Sequence record: PV245933.1 | Length of the DNA stretch: 39,625 nt | Source: Escherichia phage nasanit | Reading direction: 5' to 3' (one strand) | Shown here: piece after piece, positions 11,265 through 22,833 of the stretch | Layout: every line of letters starts with the position of its first letter | Numbering within the stretch: position 1 is the first letter of the stretch | The notes under the pieces: generated by a model | Database searches by the model: none | What the model was told of the DNA's origin: nothing | What the model saw: the letters and a program-made list of their open reading frames with translations, nothing else | Program-made: the position numbers and the translations under genes

Positions 11265-12296
11265 ATGGAAATCACATTCAAGACTAACCCATTCAAAGCA
11301 GTATCCTACGTTGAGTCTGCCATTAAGAAAGCACTCGACAAGGCTGGCTACCTGATTGCTGACACTAAGCATGATGGTGTACGTGGTAACATCGTGGTTG
11401 ACAATACGGCTGACTGCCTGTGGCTGTCCCGTGTCTCCAAGACCATCCCCGCGCTTGAGCACCTTAATGGGTTCGACCAACGCTGGGCTAATGTTCTCAA
11501 AGATGACCGCTGGATTTTCCCTGATGGCTTCATGCTTGATGGTGAACTGATGGTCAAAGGTGTTGACTTCAACACAGGGTCTGGCCTACTGCGTACCAAG
11601 TGGCTCAAGAAGACGAACTGTGGATTTGATATTGGTGGAGTAGAGCCTCTCAAGGGGAGTAAAGTAGACTTCTGCTTAGACCCTAAGAAACTTAAGGTTG
11701 TCCTGTATGCCGCTATGCCGTATCACGATATGGTAGAAGGCAAAGAGTATGGCGTTATGTCCCTCCTGATGCAAGAGCATGTGCGTTCCCTCATTCCGGT
11801 TCTTAGTGAACACTTCCCGGAAATCACTTGGGAACTCTCTGAGGCCAAAGAAGTCTACGACATGGTAGAACTTCAGGAACTCTACGAGAAAGCCCGTGCC
11901 GATGGTCATGAAGGTCTGGTCGTCAAAGACCCGCTTGAAGTCTACAAGCGTGGCAAGAAGTCTGGCTGGTGGAAGATGAAGCCTGAGAATGAAGCTGATG
12001 GTATTATCGTTGGCCTCAATTGGGGTACTCCGGGTCTGGCTAATGAAGGTAAAGTGATTGGCTTCGAGGTTCTCTTGGAGTCCGGTCGTGTAGTCTCTGC
12101 CAACAACATTAGCCAAGCGTTGATGGATGAGTTCACTGCTGCCGTCAAACATGCTGAGTCTGTGGGTATGGGTATGCCGTACACTGGCTTCGCCTGTCAG
12201 GTTGCCTACATGGAGGAAACTCCAGACGGTTCTCTGCGTCACCCATCGTTCGTTATGTTCCGTGGAACTGAGGATAACCCAAAGGAGAAAATGTAA
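11265..12296 (+). CDS. 1.3: ATP-dependent DNA ligase, gp1.3
   Basis: 343 aa; adenylation motif KHDGVRG near N-terminus; overall T7 ligase pattern. Confidence 0.92.
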   Translation: MEITFKTNPFKAVSYVESAIKKALDKAGYLIADTKHDGVRGNIVVDNTADCLWLSRVSKTIPALEHLNGFDQRWANVLKDDRWIFPDGFMLDGELMVKGVDFNTGSGLLRTKWLKKTNCGFDIGGVEPLKGSKVDFCLDPKKLKVVLYAAMPYHDMVEGKEYGVMSLLMQEHVRSLIPVLSEHFPEITWELSEAKEVYDMVELQELYEKARADGHEGLVVKDPLEVYKRGKKSGWWKMKPENEADGIIVGLNWGTPGLANEGKVIGFEVLLESGRVVSANNISQALMDEFTAAVKHAESVGMGMPYTGFACQVAYMEETPDGSLRHPSFVMFRGTEDNPKEKM

Positions 12297-12478
12297 TGCT
12301 TATCTTTGACGAGAACGGTTGGAGAGTGTATCAACACCCACACCTGATGATATTCCACATATCAAAGTGGATGGAAGGAGATGACCGGAGAAGCTACGGG
12401 AGAACTTGGGACTACTTTACTGTCCATGAGTGCCATAGTATTAAGGAAGTCAAAGAGTACCTACGAAACAATATGTAA
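12296..12478 (+). CDS. Hypothetical protein, 60 aa (gene 1.4 position)
   Basis: ATG overlaps ligase stop; intact ORF. Confidence 0.45.
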   Translation: MLIFDENGWRVYQHPHLMIFHISKWMEGDDRRSYGRTWDYFTVHECHSIKEVKEYLRNNM

Positions 12479-12486
12479 AGACAAAT

Positions 12487-12520
12487 GGTCAGTCCTTAAC
12501 GGGCTGGCCTTTTTGTGTTT
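12487..12520 (+). terminator. Intrinsic terminator (early terminator TE position)
   Basis: RNA hairpin GGUCAGUCC-UUAAC-GGGCUGGCC (G-U wobbles) followed by UUUUUGUGUUU. Confidence 0.6.
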
Positions 12521-12543
12521 CTATACGACTCACTATGGAGGAA
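12521..12543 (+). promoter_or_regulatory. Phage RNAP promoter (phi1.5 position), variant
   Basis: CTATACGACTCACTATGGAGGA. Confidence 0.6.
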
Positions 12544-12550
12544 CTACCTC

Positions 12551-12631
12551 ATGCTATTTCTAATTGCTGCTGCTATCTTTGCCACGTTTGCCTTCGTTAT
12601 CATTGACGACAACTGCTGGCCGGATTGCTAA
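12551..12631 (+). CDS. Possible 26-aa hydrophobic peptide (gene 1.5 position)
   Basis: MLFLIAAAIFATFAFVIIDDNCWPDC; GGAGGA SD; very short, weak evidence. Confidence 0.25.
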   Translation: MLFLIAAAIFATFAFVIIDDNCWPDC

Positions 12632-12651
12632 TACGACTCACCTATGGAGGA
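12629..12651 (+). promoter_or_regulatory. Phage RNAP promoter (phi1.6 position), variant
   Basis: TAATACGACTCACCTATGGAGGA. Confidence 0.55.
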
Positions 12652-12658
12652 CACAACT

Positions 12659-12922
12659 ATGTTAAGACTTCACTTCAACAAATCTAATGGCATCTTCTCT
12701 GCGCGTGGCGCTGACCGCTCTACGGTTCTGGCCTCTGAGAAACACGCAGTCATCCCTAAAGTGCTTGGCTCGACCATTGAGTTAGCACCTCGTGTTCACG
12801 CTGTAATCACCACTGGCTTATATAAAGAAGCGACCACTGGCTCCCGGCCTTTCATTCCGGTTCTCGTCACCCGTTTTCCTAAAGTCCGTCTGGTAATTGC
12901 GCGTATCAAGGAGGTGTTCTAA
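12659..12922 (+). CDS. gp1.6-like hypothetical protein (87 aa)
   Basis: Start MLRLHFNK with GGAGGA SD; track start 12644 lies inside the promoter. Confidence 0.55.
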   Translation: MLRLHFNKSNGIFSARGADRSTVLASEKHAVIPKVLGSTIELAPRVHAVITTGLYKEATTGSRPFIPVLVTRFPKVRLVIARIKEVF

Positions 12923-13233
12923 TGGTCTGCATGGCATGTTTAGAGAATGATGACCGCTACCCTCACACCTGTGAACCTGTAGCTAAACCACAAGATATAG
13001 AGGGTGTTCGCAAGCCGAGCCACTATATGTTGTTTGATGACATTGAGGCTATCGAGGTGATTGCCCGTTCGATGACCCGTGAACAGTTCAAAGGGTACTG
13101 CTTAGGGAATATCCTTAAGTACCGCCTCCGTGCTGGTAAGAAATCCGAACTGGCATTCTTAGAGAAGGACATGGCGAAAGCTGGGTTCTACGGTGAACTG
13201 TACGAGAAACATAAAGGTAAATGCCATGCTTAA
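12922..13233 (+). CDS. 1.7: gp1.7-like nucleotide kinase, short form (103 aa)
   Basis: ACLENDDRYPHTC and KPSHYMLFDDIEAIEVIARSMT..KGYCLGNILKYRLRAGKK match T7 gp1.7 N- and C-terminal blocks; central part of the 196-aa T7 protein absent. Confidence 0.7.
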   Translation: MVCMACLENDDRYPHTCEPVAKPQDIEGVRKPSHYMLFDDIEAIEVIARSMTREQFKGYCLGNILKYRLRAGKKSELAFLEKDMAKAGFYGELYEKHKGKCHA

Positions 13234-13324
13234 ACCTAGCGAATGGTGTGAGCGTATGTTTGAAAAGACAGGTAACACCGACTACCTTGAATTATATAAT
13301 CACTGGAAGGAGAGAGGACAATGA
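13226..13324 (+). CDS. gp1.8-like small protein (32 aa)
   Basis: [32 protein letters not shown]; overlaps 1.7 end and gene 2 start. Confidence 0.45.
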
Positions 13325-13512
13325 GCACTCTGAATAAAGGGTCACTGGTAAACGGTGACAAGAAGTTCTTCGCTACGGTAGAAGGCCAAGGCCAATCGTT
13401 CGAAGTACCTGTGTTCGCTACGTCTCTTGAAGAGGCCAATGAGTTAGCTGAGTGGCAATACGTCCCTGCTGGCTTCGCTGTAACACGCATCCGTCCAGAC
13501 CGTAAGGTTTAA
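13321..13512 (+). CDS. 2: Inhibitor of host RNA polymerase, gp2
   Basis: 63 aa; ...[33 protein letters not shown] very close to T7 Gp2. Confidence 0.9.
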
Positions 13513-13532
13513 TAGGACTCACTAATGGGAGA
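13510..13532 (+). promoter_or_regulatory. Phage RNAP promoter (phi2.5 position)
   Basis: TAATAGGACTCACTAATGGGAGA. Confidence 0.7.
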
Positions 13533-13582
13533 CACTAACGTTTCCCCACTTTAACTTTCAGAAACTTTAAAGGAGAATCATT

Positions 13583-14287
13583 ATGGCATTCGCAAAACGT
13601 AAAGTATTCACTTCCGCTCGTGGTGTTGCTGAACCTTACTGCTATCTGGCAAAGCCGGACTTCGGTAGTGGCGACTTCAAGAACGAACGTGGTGTCTACA
13701 AGGTGTCACTTACTGTATCCAACAACGACCCTCGCTGTCAGAAAATGATTGACGAGATTGTCGAAGCCCATGAAGCGGACTATGCTGCTCGTCTTGAAGA
13801 GTACGAAGCGAACCCGCCGAAAGTTGTCAAGGGTAAGAAACCGCTGAAGCCGTATGTTGGCGACATGCCTTTCATGGATAACGAAGACGGAACCACTACG
13901 TTCAACTTCAAGTGCTACGGCTCGTTCACTGACAAGAAGACTGGTGAGAACAAACCAATCGACTTGGCTATTGTGGACTCCAAAGGTAAGCGCATCCGTG
14001 GCGAGCGTCCAGCTATCTCTGGTGGCTCTGAACTGAAGATTAAATACACTCTGTTCCCTTATGGTTGGTCTGCTGTGGCAGGTGCTTCCGTTAAGCTGCA
14101 ACTGGATTCCGTGATGCTGATTAAGCTGGTCGAGTTCGGTGGTGGTGATGACGATTGGGGTGATGAAATCGAAGAAGATGGCTACGAAGCTGATGAAAGC
14201 CAGACCAGTCAACGTCCTAAAAATGATTCTGGTTGGAACGAAGAACCGGAAGATGAAGGCGACGAAGATGAAGATGGCGACTTCTAA
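13583..14287 (+). CDS. 2.5: Single-stranded DNA-binding protein, gp2.5
   Basis: 234 aa; acidic C-terminal tail ending DEDEDGDF with terminal Phe; T7 gp2.5 pattern. Confidence 0.95.
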   Translation: MAFAKRKVFTSARGVAEPYCYLAKPDFGSGDFKNERGVYKVSLTVSNNDPRCQKMIDEIVEAHEADYAARLEEYEANPPKVVKGKKPLKPYVGDMPFMDNEDGTTTFNFKCYGSFTDKKTGENKPIDLAIVDSKGKRIRGERPAISGGSELKIKYTLFPYGWSAVAGASVKLQLDSVMLIKLVEFGGGDDDWGDEIEEDGYEADESQTSQRPKNDSGWNEEPEDEGDEDEDGDF

Positions 14288-14733
14288 TGGCTAAGGGATA
14301 TGCAGGTCGAGGCACTCGTGTGGGTGCCTTTCGCTCTGGCTTGGAGGATAAGGTAAGCAAACAGCTTGAGTCAAAGAACATTAAGTTCGACTATGAGCGC
14401 TGGCGTGTACCATATGTTGTCCCTGCAAGCAACCATACCTATTGCCCGGACTTCCTGTTACCTAATGGCATCTTTGTGGAAACCAAAGGTCTGTGGGACA
14501 GTGATGACCGCAAGAAACACTTACTGATTCGTGAACAGTATCCTGAACTTGATGTGCGCATCGTGTTCTCTTCAAGCCGCTCCAAGCTGTACAAAGGGTC
14601 TCCGACCAGCTACGGTGAGTGGTGCGAGAAGCATGGCATTCTGTTTGCTGATAAATTAATTCCAGTTGATTGGCTGAAAGAGCCTTCTAAGGATGTTCCA
14701 TTCGATAAATTTAAAGAGGTGAAGAAGAAATGA
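14287..14733 (+). CDS. 3: Endonuclease I (Holliday junction resolvase), gp3
   Basis: 148 aa; conserved blocks PASNHTYCPDFLLPNGIFVETKG and KLYKGSPTSYGEWCEKHGI. Confidence 0.93.
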   Translation: MAKGYAGRGTRVGAFRSGLEDKVSKQLESKNIKFDYERWRVPYVVPASNHTYCPDFLLPNGIFVETKGLWDSDDRKKHLLIREQYPELDVRIVFSSSRSKLYKGSPTSYGEWCEKHGILFADKLIPVDWLKEPSKDVPFDKFKEVKKK

Positions 14734-15185
14734 GTAAGGTACAATTCAAACCACGCGCTGTGACAGAAGCAATCTTTGTCCACTGTAGCGCAACCAAGGC
14801 GTCCATGAATGTTGGACTGCGTGAAATCCGTCAGTGGCATAAAGAACAGGGCTGGCTTGATGTAGGCTACCACTTCATTATTCGCCGTGATGGTACAATC
14901 GAAGAAGGCCGTCCGGTCGGAGTCGTTGGGTCTCACGTTAAGGACTGGAACAGTAAGTCGGTCGGTGTGTGCCTCGTTGGTGGTATCGACGATAAGGGCA
15001 AACACGAAGCTAACTTTACGCCAGCACAGATGCACTCTCTTAAAGAGAAACTCGCAGACCTGCTGGACATGTATCCAGATGCAGAAGTAAAAGCGCACCA
15101 CGATGTGGCACCTAAAGCGTGTCCGTCATTCAACTTGAGCCGCTGGCTGAAGACTGGTGAATTAGTAACTAGTGATTGGGGTTAA
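14730..15185 (+). CDS. 3.5: N-acetylmuramoyl-L-alanine amidase (T7 lysozyme) / RNAP inhibitor, gp3.5
   Basis: 151 aa; AIFVHCSATK, GYHFIIRRDGT, HHDVAPKACPSF motifs of T7 lysozyme. Confidence 0.95.
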   Translation: MSKVQFKPRAVTEAIFVHCSATKASMNVGLREIRQWHKEQGWLDVGYHFIIRRDGTIEEGRPVGVVGSHVKDWNSKSVGVCLVGGIDDKGKHEANFTPAQMHSLKEKLADLLDMYPDAEVKAHHDVAPKACPSFNLSRWLKTGELVTSDWG

Positions 15186-15189
15186 TATT

Positions 15190-15282
15190 ATGATGGTTAT
15201 CCACGAGATGGGTCTGTACGATTTGATTTATCGCCTCGCGTTCATGCTGGCAATGGTCTACATTCTTACCCGCAAGGATTAA
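15190..15282 (+). CDS. Possible 30-aa hydrophobic peptide
   Basis: MMVIHEMGLYDLIYRLAFMLAMVYILTRKD; short, weak evidence. Confidence 0.3.
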   Translation: MMVIHEMGLYDLIYRLAFMLAMVYILTRKD

Positions 15283-15301
15283 TAGAACTCACTATGGGAG
15301 A
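15280..15301 (+). promoter_or_regulatory. Phage RNAP promoter (phi3.8 position), variant
   Basis: TTAATAGAACTCACTATGGGAGAG followed by 5' hairpin GGGAGAG..TCTCCC. Confidence 0.65.
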
Positions 15302-15352
15302 GCCGAAAGGTTTCTCCCTTTGTTCGCTAAAATTGTATAAGGAGTAATCACT

Positions 15353-17304
<1,952 letters not shown>

Positions 17305-17306
17305 AT

Positions 17307-17329
17307 CAATACAACTCACTAATGGGACA
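17307..17329 (+). promoter_or_regulatory. Phage RNAP promoter (phi4.3 position), variant
   Basis: CAATACAACTCACTAATGGGACA. Confidence 0.65.
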
Positions 17330-17372
17330 GACACTCTGTTCCCATTTATCAATCCGCTTAAGGAGAATCACA

Positions 17373-17585
17373 ATGTTTAAATTCATCAATACTCTTGGTA
17401 AGCTGTTAGTTAAAATGTACTTCCGTGAAGCTAAACGTCTGAACGACAAGGCACGTAAGGACGCTGAACAGGCTCAACGCTTGGCGAAGCAGGCACGTCT
17501 ACTGTCTGAAGATGCAAGTGCTGGCGTTACGTCTGCTGCTAAGATTGCAGCGAAAGCAACCGACCTCAACAAGTTCTTCCTGTAA
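17373..17585 (+). CDS. 4.3: gp4.3-like protein (70 aa)
   Basis: Start MFKFINTLGKLL after AAGGAGA SD; same length as T7 gp4.3. Confidence 0.65.
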   Translation: MFKFINTLGKLLVKMYFREAKRLNDKARKDAEQAQRLAKQARLLSEDASAGVTSAAKIAAKATDLNKFFL

Positions 17586-17764
17586 TGGTTACGATAACCC
17601 TTGTGCTCACTCTGATAACTGTGAGCGGACAAACAATAAGTCAAGTCCCTATCACGGCACCGAAGGCTGAGGCATACGAAATATGCGAACAGCAAGGGCG
17701 CTCATGGTCTAAGGACTTGATGAAGAACGGCAGGGTTTTCACTGCCAACTACAACTGTATCTAA
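17585..17764 (+). CDS. Hypothetical small protein, 59 aa, N-terminal hydrophobic segment
   Basis: MVTITLVLTLITVSG... (signal peptide or TM-like), 3 Cys; ATG overlaps 4.3 stop. Confidence 0.45.
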   Translation: MVTITLVLTLITVSGQTISQVPITAPKAEAYEICEQQGRSWSKDLMKNGRVFTANYNCI

Positions 17765-17778
17765 TAGGAGTACACAAC

Positions 17779-18081
17779 ATGGCTATTAAATTCCCCGGTA
17801 ACACTATCCGTCTGTCCGACACCATCGACCAGTATGCTCGTCGGGTGCACATCAACGTCCGTAATGGCAAGGTCACTTTGGTCTACCGCTGGAAGGACCA
17901 TAAGTCCACCAAGGCGCACACACAGCGTGTGACTCTGGATGACACACAGGCAGGTCGTCTGCTGGCTTCCGTTGCTGTAGCCGCTACTGTGGCTGTAGGT
18001 GAAGACAATGTGCGTCAGGTTCTGCTGGGTAAGACCGTGGAGTCTGAGGGCAACATGCTTGCTGACAAGTGTGAAGAGTAA
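17779..18081 (+). CDS. Hypothetical protein, 100 aa
   Basis: Intact ORF with TAGGAG SD. Confidence 0.6.
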   Translation: MAIKFPGNTIRLSDTIDQYARRVHINVRNGKVTLVYRWKDHKSTKAHTQRVTLDDTQAGRLLASVAVAATVAVGEDNVRQVLLGKTVESEGNMLADKCEE

Positions 18082-18082
18082 G

Positions 18083-18127
18083 AGTTAAACTAAAGGTCAT
18101 CTTAACGGGTGGCCTTCGTGATTAACT
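18083..18127 (+). promoter_or_regulatory. Conserved processing hairpin (RNase III site-like, R4.7 position)
   Basis: GAGTTAAACTAAAGGTCATCTTAACGGGTGGCCTTCGTGATTAAC. Confidence 0.45.
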
Positions 18128-18138
18128 TTTGTATGAAA

Positions 18139-18162
18139 TCTATTCAACTCACTAATGGGAGA
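18139..18162 (+). promoter_or_regulatory. Phage RNAP promoter (phi4.7 position), variant
   Basis: TCTATTCAACTCACTAATGGGAGA. Confidence 0.6.
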
Positions 18163-18170
18163 ACAACAAT

Positions 18171-18569
18171 ATGCGTAATCGTAATGTAATCGAAGCTGAA
18201 ATCTCTAAGCTGCAAGCTGAACTGGCTGATGTCAAAGAGTATGAATGTGCTCGTGACTCTGCGGTACACATCCTGAAGAACTTAGGGTGGACTCGCTCCC
18301 GTGGTCAATGGGTGAAACCTGCCAAGGCAAACACCAAGCTGTTCGATAAGGACACCATGACCCACATTAAGGCTGGTGACTTCTGCGCATCAACTGAGAC
18401 ATCATCTCTATGGTACGTGCGCACGGTCGATGGCAACATCTGCTGGTGCTCACGAGTGTCCCGCATTACTCCTAACGGAACCTTAGTGACCAGCAACAAC
18501 GTTGGAATCAAAGCTGAGAACCTGAAGGTAATCAACGTGAAAGACTATATGGGATACACCCATCGTTAA
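18171..18569 (+). CDS. gp4.7-like hypothetical protein (132 aa)
   Basis: Intact ORF directly downstream of promoter; size close to T7 gp4.7 (135 aa). Confidence 0.6.
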   Translation: MRNRNVIEAEISKLQAELADVKEYECARDSAVHILKNLGWTRSRGQWVKPAKANTKLFDKDTMTHIKAGDFCASTETSSLWYVRTVDGNICWCSRVSRITPNGTLVTSNNVGIKAENLKVINVKDYMGYTHR

Positions 18570-18588
18570 ACTTTAAGGAGTAAACACA

Positions 18589-20703
18589 ATGTTACTATCC
18601 GACATCGAAACAAACGGGTTGCTGCACAACGTTAGTCAATTTCACTGTGCGGTGACTTACGACTACACAACTGACCAGTACATCCGTTACCGACCTGATG
18701 ACTTTGGGGCGTACATTGATGCACTCGAAGCCGAGGTTGCTCGTGGTGGTCTCATTGTGTTCCACAACGGTCACAAGTATGACGTTCCTGTTATCGAGAA
18801 GCTGGCGAAGCTGATTCTGAATCGTGACGTTAAGTTCCCGAAAGAGAACGTCTTGGACACCTTAGTGATGTCCCGACTGATTTACTCTAACATCAAAGAC
18901 ACTGATGCTGGTCTGCTGCGTTCTGGCAAGCTGCCAGGTAAACGCTTTGGCTCTCACGCTCTTGAGGCGTGGGGCTACCGCTTAGGCGAAATGAAGGGTG
19001 AGTACAAGGACGACTTTAAGAAGTCACTGGAAGAGTCTGGTGATGAATACGAAGACGGGATGGAGTGGCTGTTCTTCAACGAAGACATGATGGAATATAA
19101 CGTTCAAGACGTTGTAGTCACCAAGGCACTCTTTGAGAAACTGTGTAGCAACACTTTCTATTTCCCGAACGAGACACCCGCTGGAAGCACAGAAGCAGAA
19201 CGTTTCTGGAACGGTAGCCTTGAGGCTGTCAAGCTGGAACATGATGCTGCATGGTTGTTAGCTAAGATGGAGCGTAACGGTTTTCCTATTGACATTAAGT
19301 CTCTTGAGAACCTGTACGCAGAACTCGCTGGTAGACGTGGTGAGCTACTCGTAGAGTTAACCAATACGTTTGGCTCATGGTACTCCGCTAAGGGCGGTAC
19401 TGAAGCATTCAGGCATCCTCGTACCGGAAAGCCGCTCACCAAGTATCCTCGTGTGAAGTACCCGAAACAGGGTGGTATATTTAAGAAGCCTAAGAACAAG
19501 AAGCAACGTGAAGGCTTAGAGCCATGTGAGTTGGATACCCGCGATTACGTTGAGGGTGCTCCGTATACTCCGGTTGAGCACGTTGTGTTTAACCCTTCGA
19601 GCCGAGACCACATCACTCGTGTTCTCACCAAGGCTGGTTGGGTTCCCGTTGAGTTCACCCCAAGTGGTGCACCAAAGGTAGACGATGAGGTCTTAGAGCA
19701 CGTTAAGGTAGACGACCCTGATGCACAGCGTTGCATTGAGTTGATTAAAGAATACCTTATGATTCAGAAACGTATCGGTCAGGTTGCTGAGGGTGATAAC
19801 GGCTGGCTCCGAATGATTGGAGAAGATGGTCGTATTCACGGAAGCGTTAACCCTAACGGTGCGGTAACTGGACGTGCAACCCATAGTTTCCCTAACGTGG
19901 CACAGGTGCCTTCTATCCGTGCTGCTTATGGCGAACCTTGCCGTGCTGCTTTCGGTGCCGAGCACAACATGAAAGACGGTAAGCCAGACCCTTGGATTCA
20001 AGTTGGTGTGGATGCGTCCGGCCTTGAGCTACGTTGCTTGGGCCACTTCATGTATCGTTATGATGAGGGTGAGTACGTTGAGACTATCCTCACTGGTGAC
20101 ATCCATACGAAGAACCAATTGGCTGCGGGCCTACCAACTCGTGACAACGCTAAGACATTTATCTATGGGTTCCTCTATGGTGCTGGCGCTGCGAAGATAG
20201 GACAGATTGTTGGTGGTACTGCCGAAGACGGTAAGCGACTCATAAAGAACTTCCTTGAGCAAACCCCTGCTATCGCTGCATTACGTGAAGCAATCACAGG
20301 GACACTCGTCAAGGACTCTAAGTGGGTTGGTGGTGAACAGAAAGTAACTTGGAAGCGCCGTTGGGTTCGAGGCTTGGATGGTCGTAAAGTACACGTCCGT
20401 AGTCCTCACGCTGCGTTGAACACCTTGTTGCAATCTGCTGGTGCTCTGATTTGTAAACTGTGGATTGTAGAGACTGAGCGTCTGTTACTGGAAGCTGGCC
20501 TGAAGCATGGCTGGGATGGTGACTTTGCGTATATGGCTTGGGTACACGATGAGATTCAGGTAGCTGCACGTACTCAAGAGATTGCCGATAAGATTGTAGA
20601 GTTGGCACAGCAAGCAATGCGTAATGTGGGAGACCACTTTAACTTTAGATGTCAGTTAGATACCGAAGGTAAGACTGGCGCAAACTGGAAAGATTGTCAC
20701 TAA
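18589..20703 (+). CDS. 5: DNA polymerase (family A, with 3'-5' exonuclease), gp5
   Basis: 704 aa (same as T7 gp5); N-terminal exo motif MLLSDIETNGL; overall T7 gp5 pattern. Confidence 0.97.
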   Translation: MLLSDIETNGLLHNVSQFHCAVTYDYTTDQYIRYRPDDFGAYIDALEAEVARGGLIVFHNGHKYDVPVIEKLAKLILNRDVKFPKENVLDTLVMSRLIYSNIKDTDAGLLRSGKLPGKRFGSHALEAWGYRLGEMKGEYKDDFKKSLEESGDEYEDGMEWLFFNEDMMEYNVQDVVVTKALFEKLCSNTFYFPNETPAGSTEAERFWNGSLEAVKLEHDAAWLLAKMERNGFPIDIKSLENLYAELAGRRGELLVELTNTFGSWYSAKGGTEAFRHPRTGKPLTKYPRVKYPKQGGIFKKPKNKKQREGLEPCELDTRDYVEGAPYTPVEHVVFNPSSRDHITRVLTKAGWVPVEFTPSGAPKVDDEVLEHVKVDDPDAQRCIELIKEYLMIQKRIGQVAEGDNGWLRMIGEDGRIHGSVNPNGAVTGRATHSFPNVAQVPSIRAAYGEPCRAAFGAEHNMKDGKPDPWIQVGVDASGLELRCLGHFMYRYDEGEYVETILTGDIHTKNQLAAGLPTRDNAKTFIYGFLYGAGAAKIGQIVGGTAEDGKRLIKNFLEQTPAIAALREAITGTLVKDSKWVGGEQKVTWKRRWVRGLDGRKVHVRSPHAALNTLLQSAGALICKLWIVETERLLLEAGLKHGWDGDFAYMAWVHDEIQVAARTQEIADKIVELAQQAMRNVGDHFNFRCQLDTEGKTGANWKDCH

Positions 20704-20718
20704 TAGGAGACACATATC

Positions 20719-21021
20719 ATGGCTATTACTAAACGTTTTAAAGTATCATTCGAAGTCACCGCTGTAATTGATAGCGAGTCTGAGAACAACCTGAATGATT
20801 TACTCGTAGACATCGCTAAGAAAGCTGCCACTGGTGAGGAACTTAACCCGTTTAAACGTGAGTTGCTAGTTCAAGGTCTAACCTATGGACCAGAAGGTGC
20901 TGCCGCATTCTGTATCAAGCAGGGTCTTCGCAATTTTATTCGTGAGGGCCACGGCGAACTGAGTTCAACCGAGCGAAAGCTCATGCGATTCTCTCCAGCT
21001 ACTATTCGTGAGGTGAAGTAA
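20719..21021 (+). CDS. 5.5: gp5.5-like protein (100 aa)
   Basis: Starts MAITKRFKVSFEVTAVIDSE; position and size as T7 gp5.5. Confidence 0.65.
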   Translation: MAITKRFKVSFEVTAVIDSESENNLNDLLVDIAKKAATGEELNPFKRELLVQGLTYGPEGAAAFCIKQGLRNFIREGHGELSSTERKLMRFSPATIREVK

Positions 21022-21230
21022 TGGGTGATTATCTACGTGTACTGGCGGCTATCAAAAGCTGCCCCAAGACCTTTCAGTCGAACTATGTGCGCAACAATGC
21101 GTCACTGGTGGCTGAGGCTGCGAGTCGTGGTCATATCTCTTGCCTATCAGTCGATGGGCGTAATGCTGGCGCTTGGGAAGTAACAGGCGCTGGTGTCCGA
21201 TTCCTGAAGAAGATGGGAGGTTGCGTATGA
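21021..21230 (+). CDS. 5.7: gp5.7-like protein (69 aa)
   Basis: Same size as T7 gp5.7; start overlaps 5.5 stop; stop overlaps gene 6 start. Confidence 0.65.
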   Translation: MGDYLRVLAAIKSCPKTFQSNYVRNNASLVAEAASRGHISCLSVDGRNAGAWEVTGAGVRFLKKMGGCV

Positions 21231-22141
21231 GCGCAATTACACTGAAGGAGTTCTACGAGTTACGCCAAGGGAAATCCGATAAGGGTGTTCTCGTAATGGA
21301 TGGTGACTGGCTGGTATTCCAAGCGATGGCAGCAAGCGAAGTCGAGACCGATTGGGGTGACGATGTGTGGACCTTAGAGTGTGACCACGGGAAAGCGTGG
21401 AACATTCTGGTTGACTCTATCAAGTCCTATGCGAGTCGTAAGAAGGCTTGGCGTGATGCACCTATCGTACTGGCCTTCACGGACGCTGTGAACTGGCGTA
21501 AGGAACTAGTGGACCCAACCTATAAGGAGAACCGTAAGGCATCCCGTAAGCCTGTAGGATACCGTGCGTTCGTCGAGCGTGTTCAAGCATGTGAGGACTG
21601 GATGTCTATCCTTGAAGACCGACTTGAGGGTGATGACGTAATGGGAATCATTGGGTCTGGTGCTAAACATTTTGGTTTCAAGAAGGCTGTACTGGTCTCC
21701 TGTGATAAGGACTTTAAGACCATCCCTGATTGTGACTTCTTGTGGTGCACGACTGGTAACATCTTGACTCAAGACCAGACTACTGCTGACTACTGGCACA
21801 TCTATCAGACCATTAAAGGTGACTTGACGGATGGTTATGGTGGCATTCCGGGCTGGGGCGAGACTACCGCTGAGTGGCTGGAGAACCCGTATGCCTTTGA
21901 ACAGGTTGAGAAAACTTTCAAGTCTGGTGCCCGTAAGGGACAGACAGTTCTCGAATGGAAAAAGGTTGACATGGGTGAGCGAACCCTATGGGAAGCCATT
22001 GTGACACTTGGTGCAAAAGCTGGGATGACCGAAGAGGAAATCATTAAGCAAGGCCAGATGGCTCGTATACTTCGATTCGAAGAGTACAACTTTATCGACA
22101 AGGAGATTTACCTATGGTCGCCGGAACAGTTGCGTTCGTAA
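21227..22141 (+). CDS. 6: 5'-3' exonuclease, gp6
   Basis: 304 aa from MSAITLKEFYELRQGKSDKGVLVMDGDWLVFQAM; T7 gp6 pattern. Confidence 0.93.
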   Translation: MSAITLKEFYELRQGKSDKGVLVMDGDWLVFQAMAASEVETDWGDDVWTLECDHGKAWNILVDSIKSYASRKKAWRDAPIVLAFTDAVNWRKELVDPTYKENRKASRKPVGYRAFVERVQACEDWMSILEDRLEGDDVMGIIGSGAKHFGFKKAVLVSCDKDFKTIPDCDFLWCTTGNILTQDQTTADYWHIYQTIKGDLTDGYGGIPGWGETTAEWLENPYAFEQVEKTFKSGARKGQTVLEWKKVDMGERTLWEAIVTLGAKAGMTEEEIIKQGQMARILRFEEYNFIDKEIYLWSPEQLRS

Positions 22142-22200
22142 TGTTCGCAATCGTAGCCTTCGCTATGGTGTGGGCTGCATTTATAGCTAAGAGTGTGTAA
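22141..22200 (+). CDS. Possible 19-aa hydrophobic peptide (gene 6.3 position)
   Basis: MFAIVAFAMVWAAFIAKSV; ATG overlaps gene 6 stop; very short. Confidence 0.2.
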   Translation: MFAIVAFAMVWAAFIAKSV

Positions 22201-22228
22201 CTCTAGGCATTCTTCTCGACAGTGAAAT

Positions 22229-22251
22229 CAATACGACTCACTATTGAGAGG
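22229..22251 (+). promoter_or_regulatory. Phage RNAP promoter (phi6.5 position)
   Basis: CAATACGACTCACTATTGAGAGG. Confidence 0.75.
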
Positions 22252-22302
22252 GGTGCCTATATGATACCTACTTTAAGTTTAACTTTAAGGAGAACATTAA
22301 TT

Positions 22303-22548
22303 ATGTTAACCCCTATCAAGAAGTATATGGAGAACCCACAAGATATTCCTAACGTTCCTCGTGCAACTATGGAGTACCTACAGGTTCAATACAATGCTGG
22401 ATATGCTATTCAGTCAGGACTAATCAACCGATTGAAACAGGCTGGATGGTCTGAAAGCTACATCGCTGGGTTCCTCGCGGGTCTCAACTATGCGTCTCAA
22501 ACTCTGGACGACATGGAGGCAATCCGTAAGGAACAGGCTGAGTCGTAA
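22303..22548 (+). CDS. gp6.5-like hypothetical protein (81 aa)
   Basis: Start MLTPIKKYMEN after TTTAACTTTAAGGAGA leader; track start 22222 rejected. Confidence 0.6.
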   Translation: MLTPIKKYMENPQDIPNVPRATMEYLQVQYNAGYAIQSGLINRLKQAGWSESYIAGFLAGLNYASQTLDDMEAIRKEQAES

Positions 22549-22557
22549 GGAGGTCTT

Positions 22558-22833
22558 ATGTGCTTTTCGCCAAAGATTAAGACACCTAAAGTAAAGACTG
22601 AATCCATCCGAGCTATCGACCCTGCGCCACTGACGGAAGAACCGAAAGGTATTCTCTTTGGTGGCGAAGAGGACAATGATAGCGGGACCTCTTCTGAGGT
22701 GCCAACGGGTGGCAAGAAGTCCCTGAAGGTGAAACTGGATGACTCCGTTGAGAAGTCCAAGAAGGCAGACTCCGATGCTGCCAAGAAGAAGTCTAAATCT
22801 GGTATCCGTACCAGTATCTTTAAGAAGAAATAA
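22558..22833 (+). CDS. 6.7: gp6.7-like virion protein (91 aa)
   Basis: Starts MCFSPKIKTPK; Lys-rich C-terminus. Confidence 0.75.
   Translation: MCFSPKIKTPKVKTESIRAIDPAPLTEEPKGILFGGEEDNDSGTSSEVPTGGKKSLKVKLDDSVEKSKKADSDAAKKKSKSGIRTSIFKKK

Follow-up and report, generated by a model that had tools for sequence, protein, structure and literature searches.

Among the micro-genes of the T7 group, 1.5 and 6.3 have published phenotypes. In phages deleted for ligase, knockouts of gene 1.5 were selected repeatedly, once in T7 and, in parallel, in two lines of T3 (PMC2696425), and T7 Gp1.5 inhibits the growth of E. coli in minimal medium, an effect relieved by stringent-like alleles of the RNA polymerase (PMC13483052). 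A missense change in T7 gene 6.3 shortened lysis time in the work of Heineman et al., who also describe the gene as poorly conserved (PMC2680503), and a genome-reduction screen failed to delete it (PMC9825161). In both T7 (VETVAYIGLGLCVLGVCLISWGLWDLARIIKSLHDTK) and T3, gp6.3 is a 37-residue open reading frame (ORF) with a single transmembrane helix that overlaps the end of gene 6. A proteomics paper on T7 detected about 50 phage proteins and its main text names neither 1.5 nor 6.3. Here, we analyse five micro-ORFs, A to E, of Escherichia phage nasanit (sequence record PV245933.1; the window below is this whole stretch of 39,625 nucleotides). An initial annotation had placed them exactly in small-gene slots of T7 and had read them as largely hydrophobic peptides, some of them possibly membrane-active.

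Over the 10.5 kb around these ORFs, identity is 95.1% with Escherichia phage 285P and 93% with BA14, both of the genus Berlinvirus (Autographiviridae, Studiervirinae), and 971 phage records match overall. The window is therefore the complete genome of a T7-like Berlinvirus phage. All five ORFs are on the + strand, within the class II (DNA-metabolism) region transcribed by the phage RNA polymerase:

12551-12631, + strand: ORF A, orthologue of gene 1.5, 26 residues (MLFLIAAAIFATFAFVIIDDNCWPDC); gp1.5 in 285P and BA14; phrog_10145 over its full length (E-value 2.8e-17)
15190-15282, + strand: ORF B, 30 residues (MMVIHEMGLYDLIYRLAFMLAMVYILTRKD); LXB_017 in 285P, AS7_0017 in BA14; phrog_25602 (E-value 2e-20)
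15353-15439, + strand: ORF C, 28 residues, predicted single-helix transmembrane peptide; LXB_018 in 285P, AS7_0018 in BA14; phrog_25193 (E-value 5e-20)
17585-17764, + strand: ORF D, 59 residues; LXB_022 in 285P, AS7_0023 in BA14; phrog_6794 (E-value 2e-25)
22114-22200, + strand: ORF E, 6.3-like, 28 residues; annotated as gp6.3 from 22114 in BA14, BSP161 and CarlSpitteler

Our results suggest that the five ORFs are probably genuine, translated and non-essential accessory genes of the class II region of Berlinvirus, and that they belong to small-gene families already annotated. They are not new, since the annotators of BA14, 285P and FE44 had recognised them: in both 285P and BA14 ORF A is named gp1.5 and B, C and D are listed as 'unknown', BA14 moreover names E gp6.3, and FE44 annotates A to D. 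The proteins deposited for B, C and D in these three phages are 72-100% identical to those of the window and occupy the same positions. The PHROG families of A to D are all labelled 'unknown function'; E has no PHROG match below an E-value of 0.2, and none of the five peptides has a match in Pfam. Most of the phage records found by tblastn leave the ORFs unannotated ('none'). The idea that they fall below the usual gene-calling thresholds thus holds for most automatic annotations, but not for these three genomes nor for the four PHROG families. The locus reveals no new kind of system and is ordinary in kind.

The evidence that carries this reading is comparative. We used 22 distinct Berlinvirus genomes, taken from GenBank (loci L001-L017) and IMG/VR (loci L018-L030), and compared the distinct substitutions in each ORF with a random expectation weighted for transitions and transversions, under which a fraction of about 0.25-0.3 is synonymous:

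ORF A: intact in 22 of 22 genomes; 23 synonymous and 20 nonsynonymous changes; P=3e-4
ORF B: present in 16 of 22; 18 synonymous and 16 nonsynonymous; P=7e-4
ORF C: intact in 22 of 22; 7 synonymous and 4 nonsynonymous; P=0.03
ORF D: present in 11 of 22; 22 synonymous and 12 nonsynonymous; P=4e-6
ORF E: intact in 19 of 22; 8 synonymous and 19 nonsynonymous; P=0.36

These counts indicate that A to D are clearly under purifying selection at the amino-acid level, for C on few events. The synonymous excess of these four ORFs is confined to the annotated frame and is found in neither alternative frame. ORF E has no excess in its own frame, and frame +1, that of gene 6, gives P=0.017. The synonymous fractions of A to D (0.53-0.65) resemble the same measure on accepted small genes: 0.58 for gp1.8, 0.62 for gp4.3, 0.77 for gp5.7 and 0.87 for gp2. 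Pairwise ratios of nonsynonymous to synonymous rates (dN/dS, Nei-Gojobori) are 0.05-0.14 between the alleles of B, 0.12 for D (against pO103), 0.2-0.9 for A and 0.15-0.7 for E. Amino-acid conservation in relatives, the check put forward by the initial annotation, is hence borne out for A to D and weakly for E, a frame that Yepe2, Berlin and an IMG/VR contig similar to Yepe2 (L028) no longer have.

We also ran a strict scan for micro-ORFs, requiring a Shine-Dalgarno (SD) sequence, an apolar run of at least 15 residues and a grand average of hydropathy (GRAVY) above 0.7, over about 12-14 kb of + strand per genome. Within the window A and E were the sole ORFs recovered. For T7, T3 and Yepe2 the scan returned the annotated 1.4, 1.5, 6.3 and C-type ORFs, plus, in T7 and T3, one out-of-frame ORF inside gene 5, which amounts to about one false positive per 13 kb. 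Because the false-positive rate in a single genome is not zero, the argument is carried by the comparative evidence, and for A to D the comparative sequence data speak decisively against chance. A tblastn search of A and E against the phage collection with the low-complexity filter on gave no match, which reflects a limit of the tool, as this filter masks hydrophobic helices, and not absence; local tblastn with the filter off recovered both.

The description of the peptides as largely hydrophobic fits A, C and E, for which GRAVY is 1.5-2.1 and the apolar runs have 18, 14 and 25 residues, respectively. For B it is borderline, and for D, with a GRAVY of 0.12, it fails. On the scales applied to all five ORFs, the summed insertion free energy is negative in A, C and E, their Eisenberg mean hydrophobicity is 0.75-0.95 and their hydrophobic moment is low. 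A hydrophobic segment of membrane-spanning length is thus found in these three, is borderline in B and is lacking in D. We regard A, C, E and perhaps B as credible candidates for single-helix membrane micro-proteins. None of the five ORFs lies in a lysis cassette, and none matches a holin, antiholin or lysis-timing family in PHROG or Pfam.

The five ORFs had been placed correctly on the + strand, save for the start of E, and their description as transcribed by the phage polymerase stands. The early terminator TE lies upstream, marking where the region transcribed by this polymerase begins, and phage promoters lie on both sides of A, at the end of B, ahead of the group that includes D, and after E:

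12487-12519, + strand: early terminator TE, a stem-loop followed by a T run, placed at 12487-12509 by the terminator scan; annotated at the same relative place in BA14 and Yepe2
12523-12545, + strand: promoter phi1.5 (tctatacgactcactatggagga), read from the sequence; annotated here in BA14 and Yepe2
15280-15302, + strand: promoter phi3.8 (taatagaactcactatgggagag), read from the sequence; annotated in BA14 and Yepe2 and conserved in our alignment of the region (A2)
22228-22251, + strand: promoter phi6.5 (aatacgactcactattgagagg), matching the annotated phi6.5 of BA14 (TTAATACGACTCACTATTGAGAGG)

TE is also upstream of phi1.5. Promoters phi1.5, phi1.6, phi3.8 and phi6.5 were read directly off the sequence, as a scan with a fixed-register consensus missed them owing to register shifts. 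Promoter phi1.6 begins on the stop codon of ORF A, whose TAA is its first three nucleotides, phi3.8 likewise begins on the stop codon of ORF B, and phi4.3 lies upstream of the group formed by gp4.3, D and gp4.5. No class II ORF follows E, as phi6.5 closes the class II block. The SD sequences that had been attributed to all five ORFs are strong in A (GGAGGA, which lies in the transcribed part of phi1.5), C and E, and weak in B (GGGG, 4 nt past the stop of gp3.5). ORF D has none and uses instead a TAATG overlap with the stop of gp4.3. The placement in T7 small-gene slots was right for A, the counterpart of gene 1.5, and for E, at the 6.3 position; D has no counterpart in T7, where only a short gap separates 4.3 from 4.5.

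ORF A gives the clearest link with T7 and T3. It encodes an 18-residue N-terminal transmembrane helix followed by the acidic tail DDNCWPDC, and is 96-100% identical to gp1.5 of 285P and BA14 and 52% to that of T3. In T7, T3, BA14 and Yepe2 gene 1.5 occupies the same position, as the first ORF after phi1.5, between TE or the ligase gene and gene 1.6. The architecture is shared as well, a helix and then DD(N/D)x(W/M)PD, always behind a phage promoter, in T3 (MWLILFAIVATLGLMVADDNIWPDC), in a T7-like IMG/VR contig (L050; MVYFIFAIILTFCLMVIDDNCWPDC) and in T7 (MMYLMPLLIVIVGCLALHCSDDDMPDGHA); in T3 and L050 the promoter lies directly upstream of the gene, as it does here. The products of T7 and T3 fall in the same size range (25-29 residues). 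T7 gp1.5 differs in that it is undetectable by tblastn, sharing with A architecture and motif only. Berlinvirus, T3-likes and L050 all have the same tail, DDNxWPDC, and its codons vary almost only synonymously (GAC/GAT, AAC/AAT, CCG/CCT, TGC/TGT), which argues for strong selection on the peptide. The exceptions are residue 22, which is C, I or Y, and the last Cys codon, which is a stop in Yepe2. We thus regard ORF A as a true orthologue of T7/T3 gene 1.5.

What this peptide might do can be approached by analogy. The 18-residue helix would anchor ORF A in the inner membrane and the DDNxWPDC tail would probably face the periplasm, because A has no basic residue and the tail carries a net charge of -3. 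From this position A might perturb the membrane state, the energy state or a partner in the membrane during the early part of the middle phase. YohP, a 27-residue transmembrane protein of E. coli, partly dissipates the membrane potential and induces (p)ppGpp (bioRxiv 10.1101/2025.05.06.652344). It resembles the putative membrane peptides of the window in size, in having a single transmembrane helix and in lacking a catalytic domain, and the toxicity of T7 Gp1.5 is genetically tied to the physiology of the stringent response. Yet there is no sequence relationship, and the link is by analogy only. The picture of A as an inner-membrane micro-protein with a periplasmic acidic tail is inferred, and the published phenotypes of gene 1.5, i.e. 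knockouts in ligase-less phages and toxicity, belong to T7 and T3 and not to Berlinvirus.

ORF C lies just ahead of gene 4A. The leader of phi3.8, ending in TTAAGGA(G/A)TAACCA and followed by an ATG, is common to the window, to T3 (L010) and to JeanTinguely (L056). In T3 and JeanTinguely the SD in this leader and this ATG start gene 4A itself, and in the Berlinviruses they start ORF C. About 95 nt separate there the ancestral start from the coding sequence of gene 4A; they encode C, behind the strong SD AAGGAG, and end in a new SD (TAGGAG) that contains the TAG stop of C, 10 nt ahead of ATG 15450. ORF C very probably is translated, to judge from these signals. At 15303-15452 it resembles an insertion of about 95 nt that provided gene 4A with a new SD and two extra N-terminal residues (MD-MEEQ). 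The mechanical list of ORFs runs gene 4A (15414-17162) upstream to GTG 15414, overlapping C; the conserved start, annotated in all relatives, is ATG 15450. In the Yepe2-type version of C (MYNLKEHVFVILICVLIIGGACLRPFL) most positions differ and there are in-frame indels of -6 and +3 nt, with the hydrophobic core kept; only the 3' end (LRPFL and the SD) is conserved with it at the nucleotide level. Salmonella phage BP12A (L022, 6892-6987) has an in-frame tandem duplication of 12 nt in C (MRNLFGKLFGEALPV...), giving a peptide of 32 residues. ORF C would hence be translated from what in T3 is the ribosome-binding site of gene 4A and, as it ends on the SD of that gene, it may be translationally coupled to the primase/helicase. 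An explanation of C by RNA structure was dropped, since folding of the phi3.8 leader with ORF C did not outperform that of shuffled sequence (z = -1.16) and an Rfam scan of 12000-22600 matched no family at E-values up to 1.

ORF E had been given a start at 22141, and the resulting 19-residue version (22141-22200) is the C-terminal part of the 28-residue frame. ATG 22141 is replaced by GCG in P694 and by GTG in D226, so that the conserved start is at 22114, 27 nt upstream, with AAGGAG 8 nt ahead of it in all relatives. The predicted peptide is nearly all transmembrane helix, and the ORF overlaps the last 28 nt of gene 6. None of its 27 changes brings in a polar residue or a stop (P=0.04). The frame is destroyed by a deletion of about 30 nt and an early stop in the three genomes that lack it, and an indel alters the last residues in SPLA4, Carena and P694. 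E appears to be weakly conserved, as an open hydrophobic frame only, with otherwise near-neutral evolution. Its likeness to gene 6.3 is one of position and architecture only: T7 and T3 likewise close their class II genes with an ORF that overlaps gene 6 at its 3' end, precedes phi6.5 and encodes a single helix with a Trp. Yet E has 28 residues instead of 37, lacks the charged C-terminal tail and is absent from the Berlinviruses of Yersinia, and tblastn of E against the T7 and T3 loci gave no relevant match, hence no detectable sequence similarity to gp6.3. Given its slot, E most likely would modulate the envelope or the timing of lysis. The suggestion on lysis timing draws solely on the phenotype of T7 6.3, a non-homologous analogue.

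ORF B begins 4 nt past the stop of gp3.5 (amidase). It was found in 40 phage records and is missing from 6 of the 22 Berlinviruses. Its two alleles have 72% protein identity and saturated synonymous sites. In the Teseptimavirus JeanTinguely a homologue (MIIHEMGLYDLIYHLAFLLAMVYVLTRN) likewise lies between gp3.5 and phi3.8, a slot that in T3 holds gene 3.7, which encodes an unrelated Cys-rich peptide. The hydrophobic core of B has 12 uncharged residues, with a conserved pair, D11 and R15, on one face and within the helix, and the C-terminal end is the basic motif TRKD. In Shigella phage A7 (NC_048180; L016, 3702-3794) RefSeq names the homologue 'carbohydrate ABC transporter permease', a label almost certainly spurious on a hydrophobic peptide of 30 residues. 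We think that C, E and probably B would be single-helix inner-membrane micro-proteins in which the hydrophobic character matters and not the exact sequence.

ORF D is different, and its classification as a membrane peptide has to be given up. Its ATG overlaps the stop of gp4.3 and the SD of gp4.5 comes right after its own stop. Residues C34, G38, W41, Y56 and C58 are invariant, and the N-terminus (MVTITLVLTLITVSGQTISQVPIT), rich in beta-branched residues, is conserved as well as the rest of the protein. In the best AlphaFold2 model (predicted local distance difference test, pLDDT, 92.6) strands span residues 2-12 and 15-25, a helix 30-47 and a last strand 51-58. Independent BFVD models of homologues from Klebsiella phage vB_Kp168 and Escherichia phage Vec13 superpose on it with template-modelling (TM) scores of 0.98 and 0.89. 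A signal peptide or lipoprotein was considered and rejected, since there is neither a lipobox Cys nor a basic n-region and residues 2-25 form a predicted beta-hairpin that is part of the fold. The model thus predicts a soluble beta-beta-alpha-beta mini-protein. Foldseek found no significant match to it in the PDB, the best (E-value about 0.35) being generic beta-beta-alpha-beta pieces of Y-family polymerases.

Phage records with a homologue of D, at about 50% identity, number 76. In Przondovirus the gene sits between 4.3 and 4.5, and in the Kayfunavirus Vec13 between the amidase and primase genes (3.5-4A). In a profile search the family makes up four to five clusters among 1.8 billion representatives; long matches with high scores (P0004, P0007, P0008, P0012) were rejected as spurious, being repeat proteins that pile up weak matches. 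Like an accessory cassette, ORF D comes and goes between genomes, and it may move as such between slots and genera. It resembles the class II host-takeover proteins of T7 (gp2, gp4.5, gp5.5, gp5.7, gp5.9) in being small (about 60 residues), globular and in the same operon block, but has no sequence match nor significant structural match to them. D would be cytoplasmic and most likely would bind a host protein, as do its neighbours gp4.5, gp5.5 and gp5.7.

Several points weigh against our reading of the five ORFs as genuine genes with a membrane role for most of them. Translation and membrane location are predictions for these ORFs, in this phage as in any Berlinvirus. The experimental data come from T7 and T3 proteins, whose similarity to A is only about 30-50% and whose similarity to E is below detection, and the toxicity of Gp1.5 is not specific, since 34 of the 53 T7 proteins were toxic in that minimal-medium screen (PMC13483052). 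Membrane insertion of B is plausible, but a core of 12 residues makes it uncertain. With 11 changes, C shows weak constraint, and the initiation region of gene 4A, instead of the peptide, could account for its conserved 3' end. The other four AlphaFold2 models of D have a pLDDT of 59-68, with an alignment of only three sequences. ORF E shows no synonymous excess (8 against 19 changes) and was lost in the lineage of Yersinia phages. Nevertheless, published T7 genetics fits, suggestively and by analogy, the idea of a membrane or lysis role for the counterparts of genes 1.5 and 6.3.

One might argue that some of the ORFs, C and E most of all and possibly D, are translated only as coupling or spacer devices that set the output of the downstream gene (gene 4A for C, gp4.5 for D), with peptides that are functionless in themselves. 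In sequence, C and E do drift freely while staying hydrophobic, C uses the ancestral ribosome-binding site of gene 4A and keeps its stop in the SD of this gene even in the divergent Yepe2 version, and D starts on one stop and is followed at once by an SD. But a spacer has no need of hydrophobicity, and yet none of the changes in E brought in a stop or a polar residue, and the transmembrane core of C has survived near-saturated divergence with in-frame indels. The amino-acid constraint is clear in A, B and D. ORFs B and E precede a promoter and not a coupled gene, and T3, JeanTinguely and half of the Berlinviruses lack C or D with the downstream gene visibly unchanged. We consider this explanation unlikely.

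For E alone, a chance open frame in the spacer between gene 6 and phi6.5 has to be weighed as well. Its synonymous fraction (0.30) is close to the neutral value (0.25), the deletions and the frame-changing indel at its C-terminus point the same way, it has no PHROG family, the strict scan yields about one false positive per 13 kb, and gene 6.3 itself was called poorly conserved by Heineman et al. Against this, all 19 E. coli-type genomes keep the frame open although it has undergone 27 distinct substitutions, the strong SD and the ATG do not vary despite lying within gene 6, the hydrophobic helix is broken by none of the changes and most pairwise dN/dS values are below 1. Moreover, T7 and T3 have an equivalent transmembrane ORF over the end of gene 6, and in T7 a missense mutation there gave the lysis-time phenotype. 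Together, we find a chance frame rather improbable.

A bolder proposal goes beyond genuine accessory genes. If an insertion of about 95 nt captured the ancestral ribosome-binding site of gene 4A and placed C, coupled, immediately upstream of the primase/helicase, the nascent transmembrane peptide of C could tether the translating phi3.8 mRNA to the inner membrane co-translationally and so localise or tune helicase synthesis. More broadly, peptides of the gp1.5 and 6.3 types might form a conserved group of phage 'membrane-state' effectors that tie membrane energetics to DNA metabolism and to the timing of lysis. We regard this as a long shot. Least probable of all is that the conservation stems not from coding but from elements in the DNA or RNA (promoters, replication signals, RNase III sites): phage promoters do abut A, B and E, the annotation of T3 has RNase III sites near the 3.8 and 6.5 promoters and C keeps the nucleotide sequence of its 3' end, but the promoters overlap stop codons only (those of A and B), substitutions are enriched at synonymous sites of one frame with no signal in the other two, and the Rfam and folding analyses were negative, so that for A to D this explanation is largely refuted.

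Some neighbouring genes deserve mention. Gene 4.2 (16882-17304, + strand) is an ORF of 140 residues that overlaps the 3' part of gene 4 in another frame; the N-terminal half of its product is strongly hydrophobic, which suggests two to three membrane helices. T7 Gp4.2 belongs to the same group of stringent-response-linked toxicity as Gp1.5 (PMC13483052). Between the ligase gene, whose stop it overlaps with its start codon (ATGA), and TE lies an ORF of 60 residues (12296-12478, + strand). It carries a hypothetical annotation in SPLA4, BSP161, S523 and pO103, is unannotated in 285P and BA14, and lies in the slot of T7 gene 1.4 but is not hydrophobic. Gene 5.7 (21021-21230) runs straight into gene 6 (21227-22141). 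The RecBCD-inhibitor gene 5.9 is found in PZJ0206, SPLA4, P694, Yepe2 and Berlin and is absent from the window, 285P and BA14. Genes for homing endonucleases (2.8, 7.7-like, 5.3-like HNH) come and go in the same inter-gene slots of collinear Berlinviruses (L005, L007, L008, L011, L013, L014, L017), and gene 5 is interrupted in Yepe2 and Berlin in such a context; the window lacks these genes in the region studied.

The T7 group is among the best-studied groups of phages and yet micro-genes such as 1.5, 6.3 and the Berlinvirus-specific ORFs are mostly dropped by automatic annotation. To what was known we add the invariant DDNxWPDC tail of gp1.5, a predicted fold for ORF D in three genera and the location of ORF C on the ancestral start of gene 4A. 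Four of the five micro-ORFs are under real selection at the protein level, which makes them concrete targets for knock-outs and tagging.

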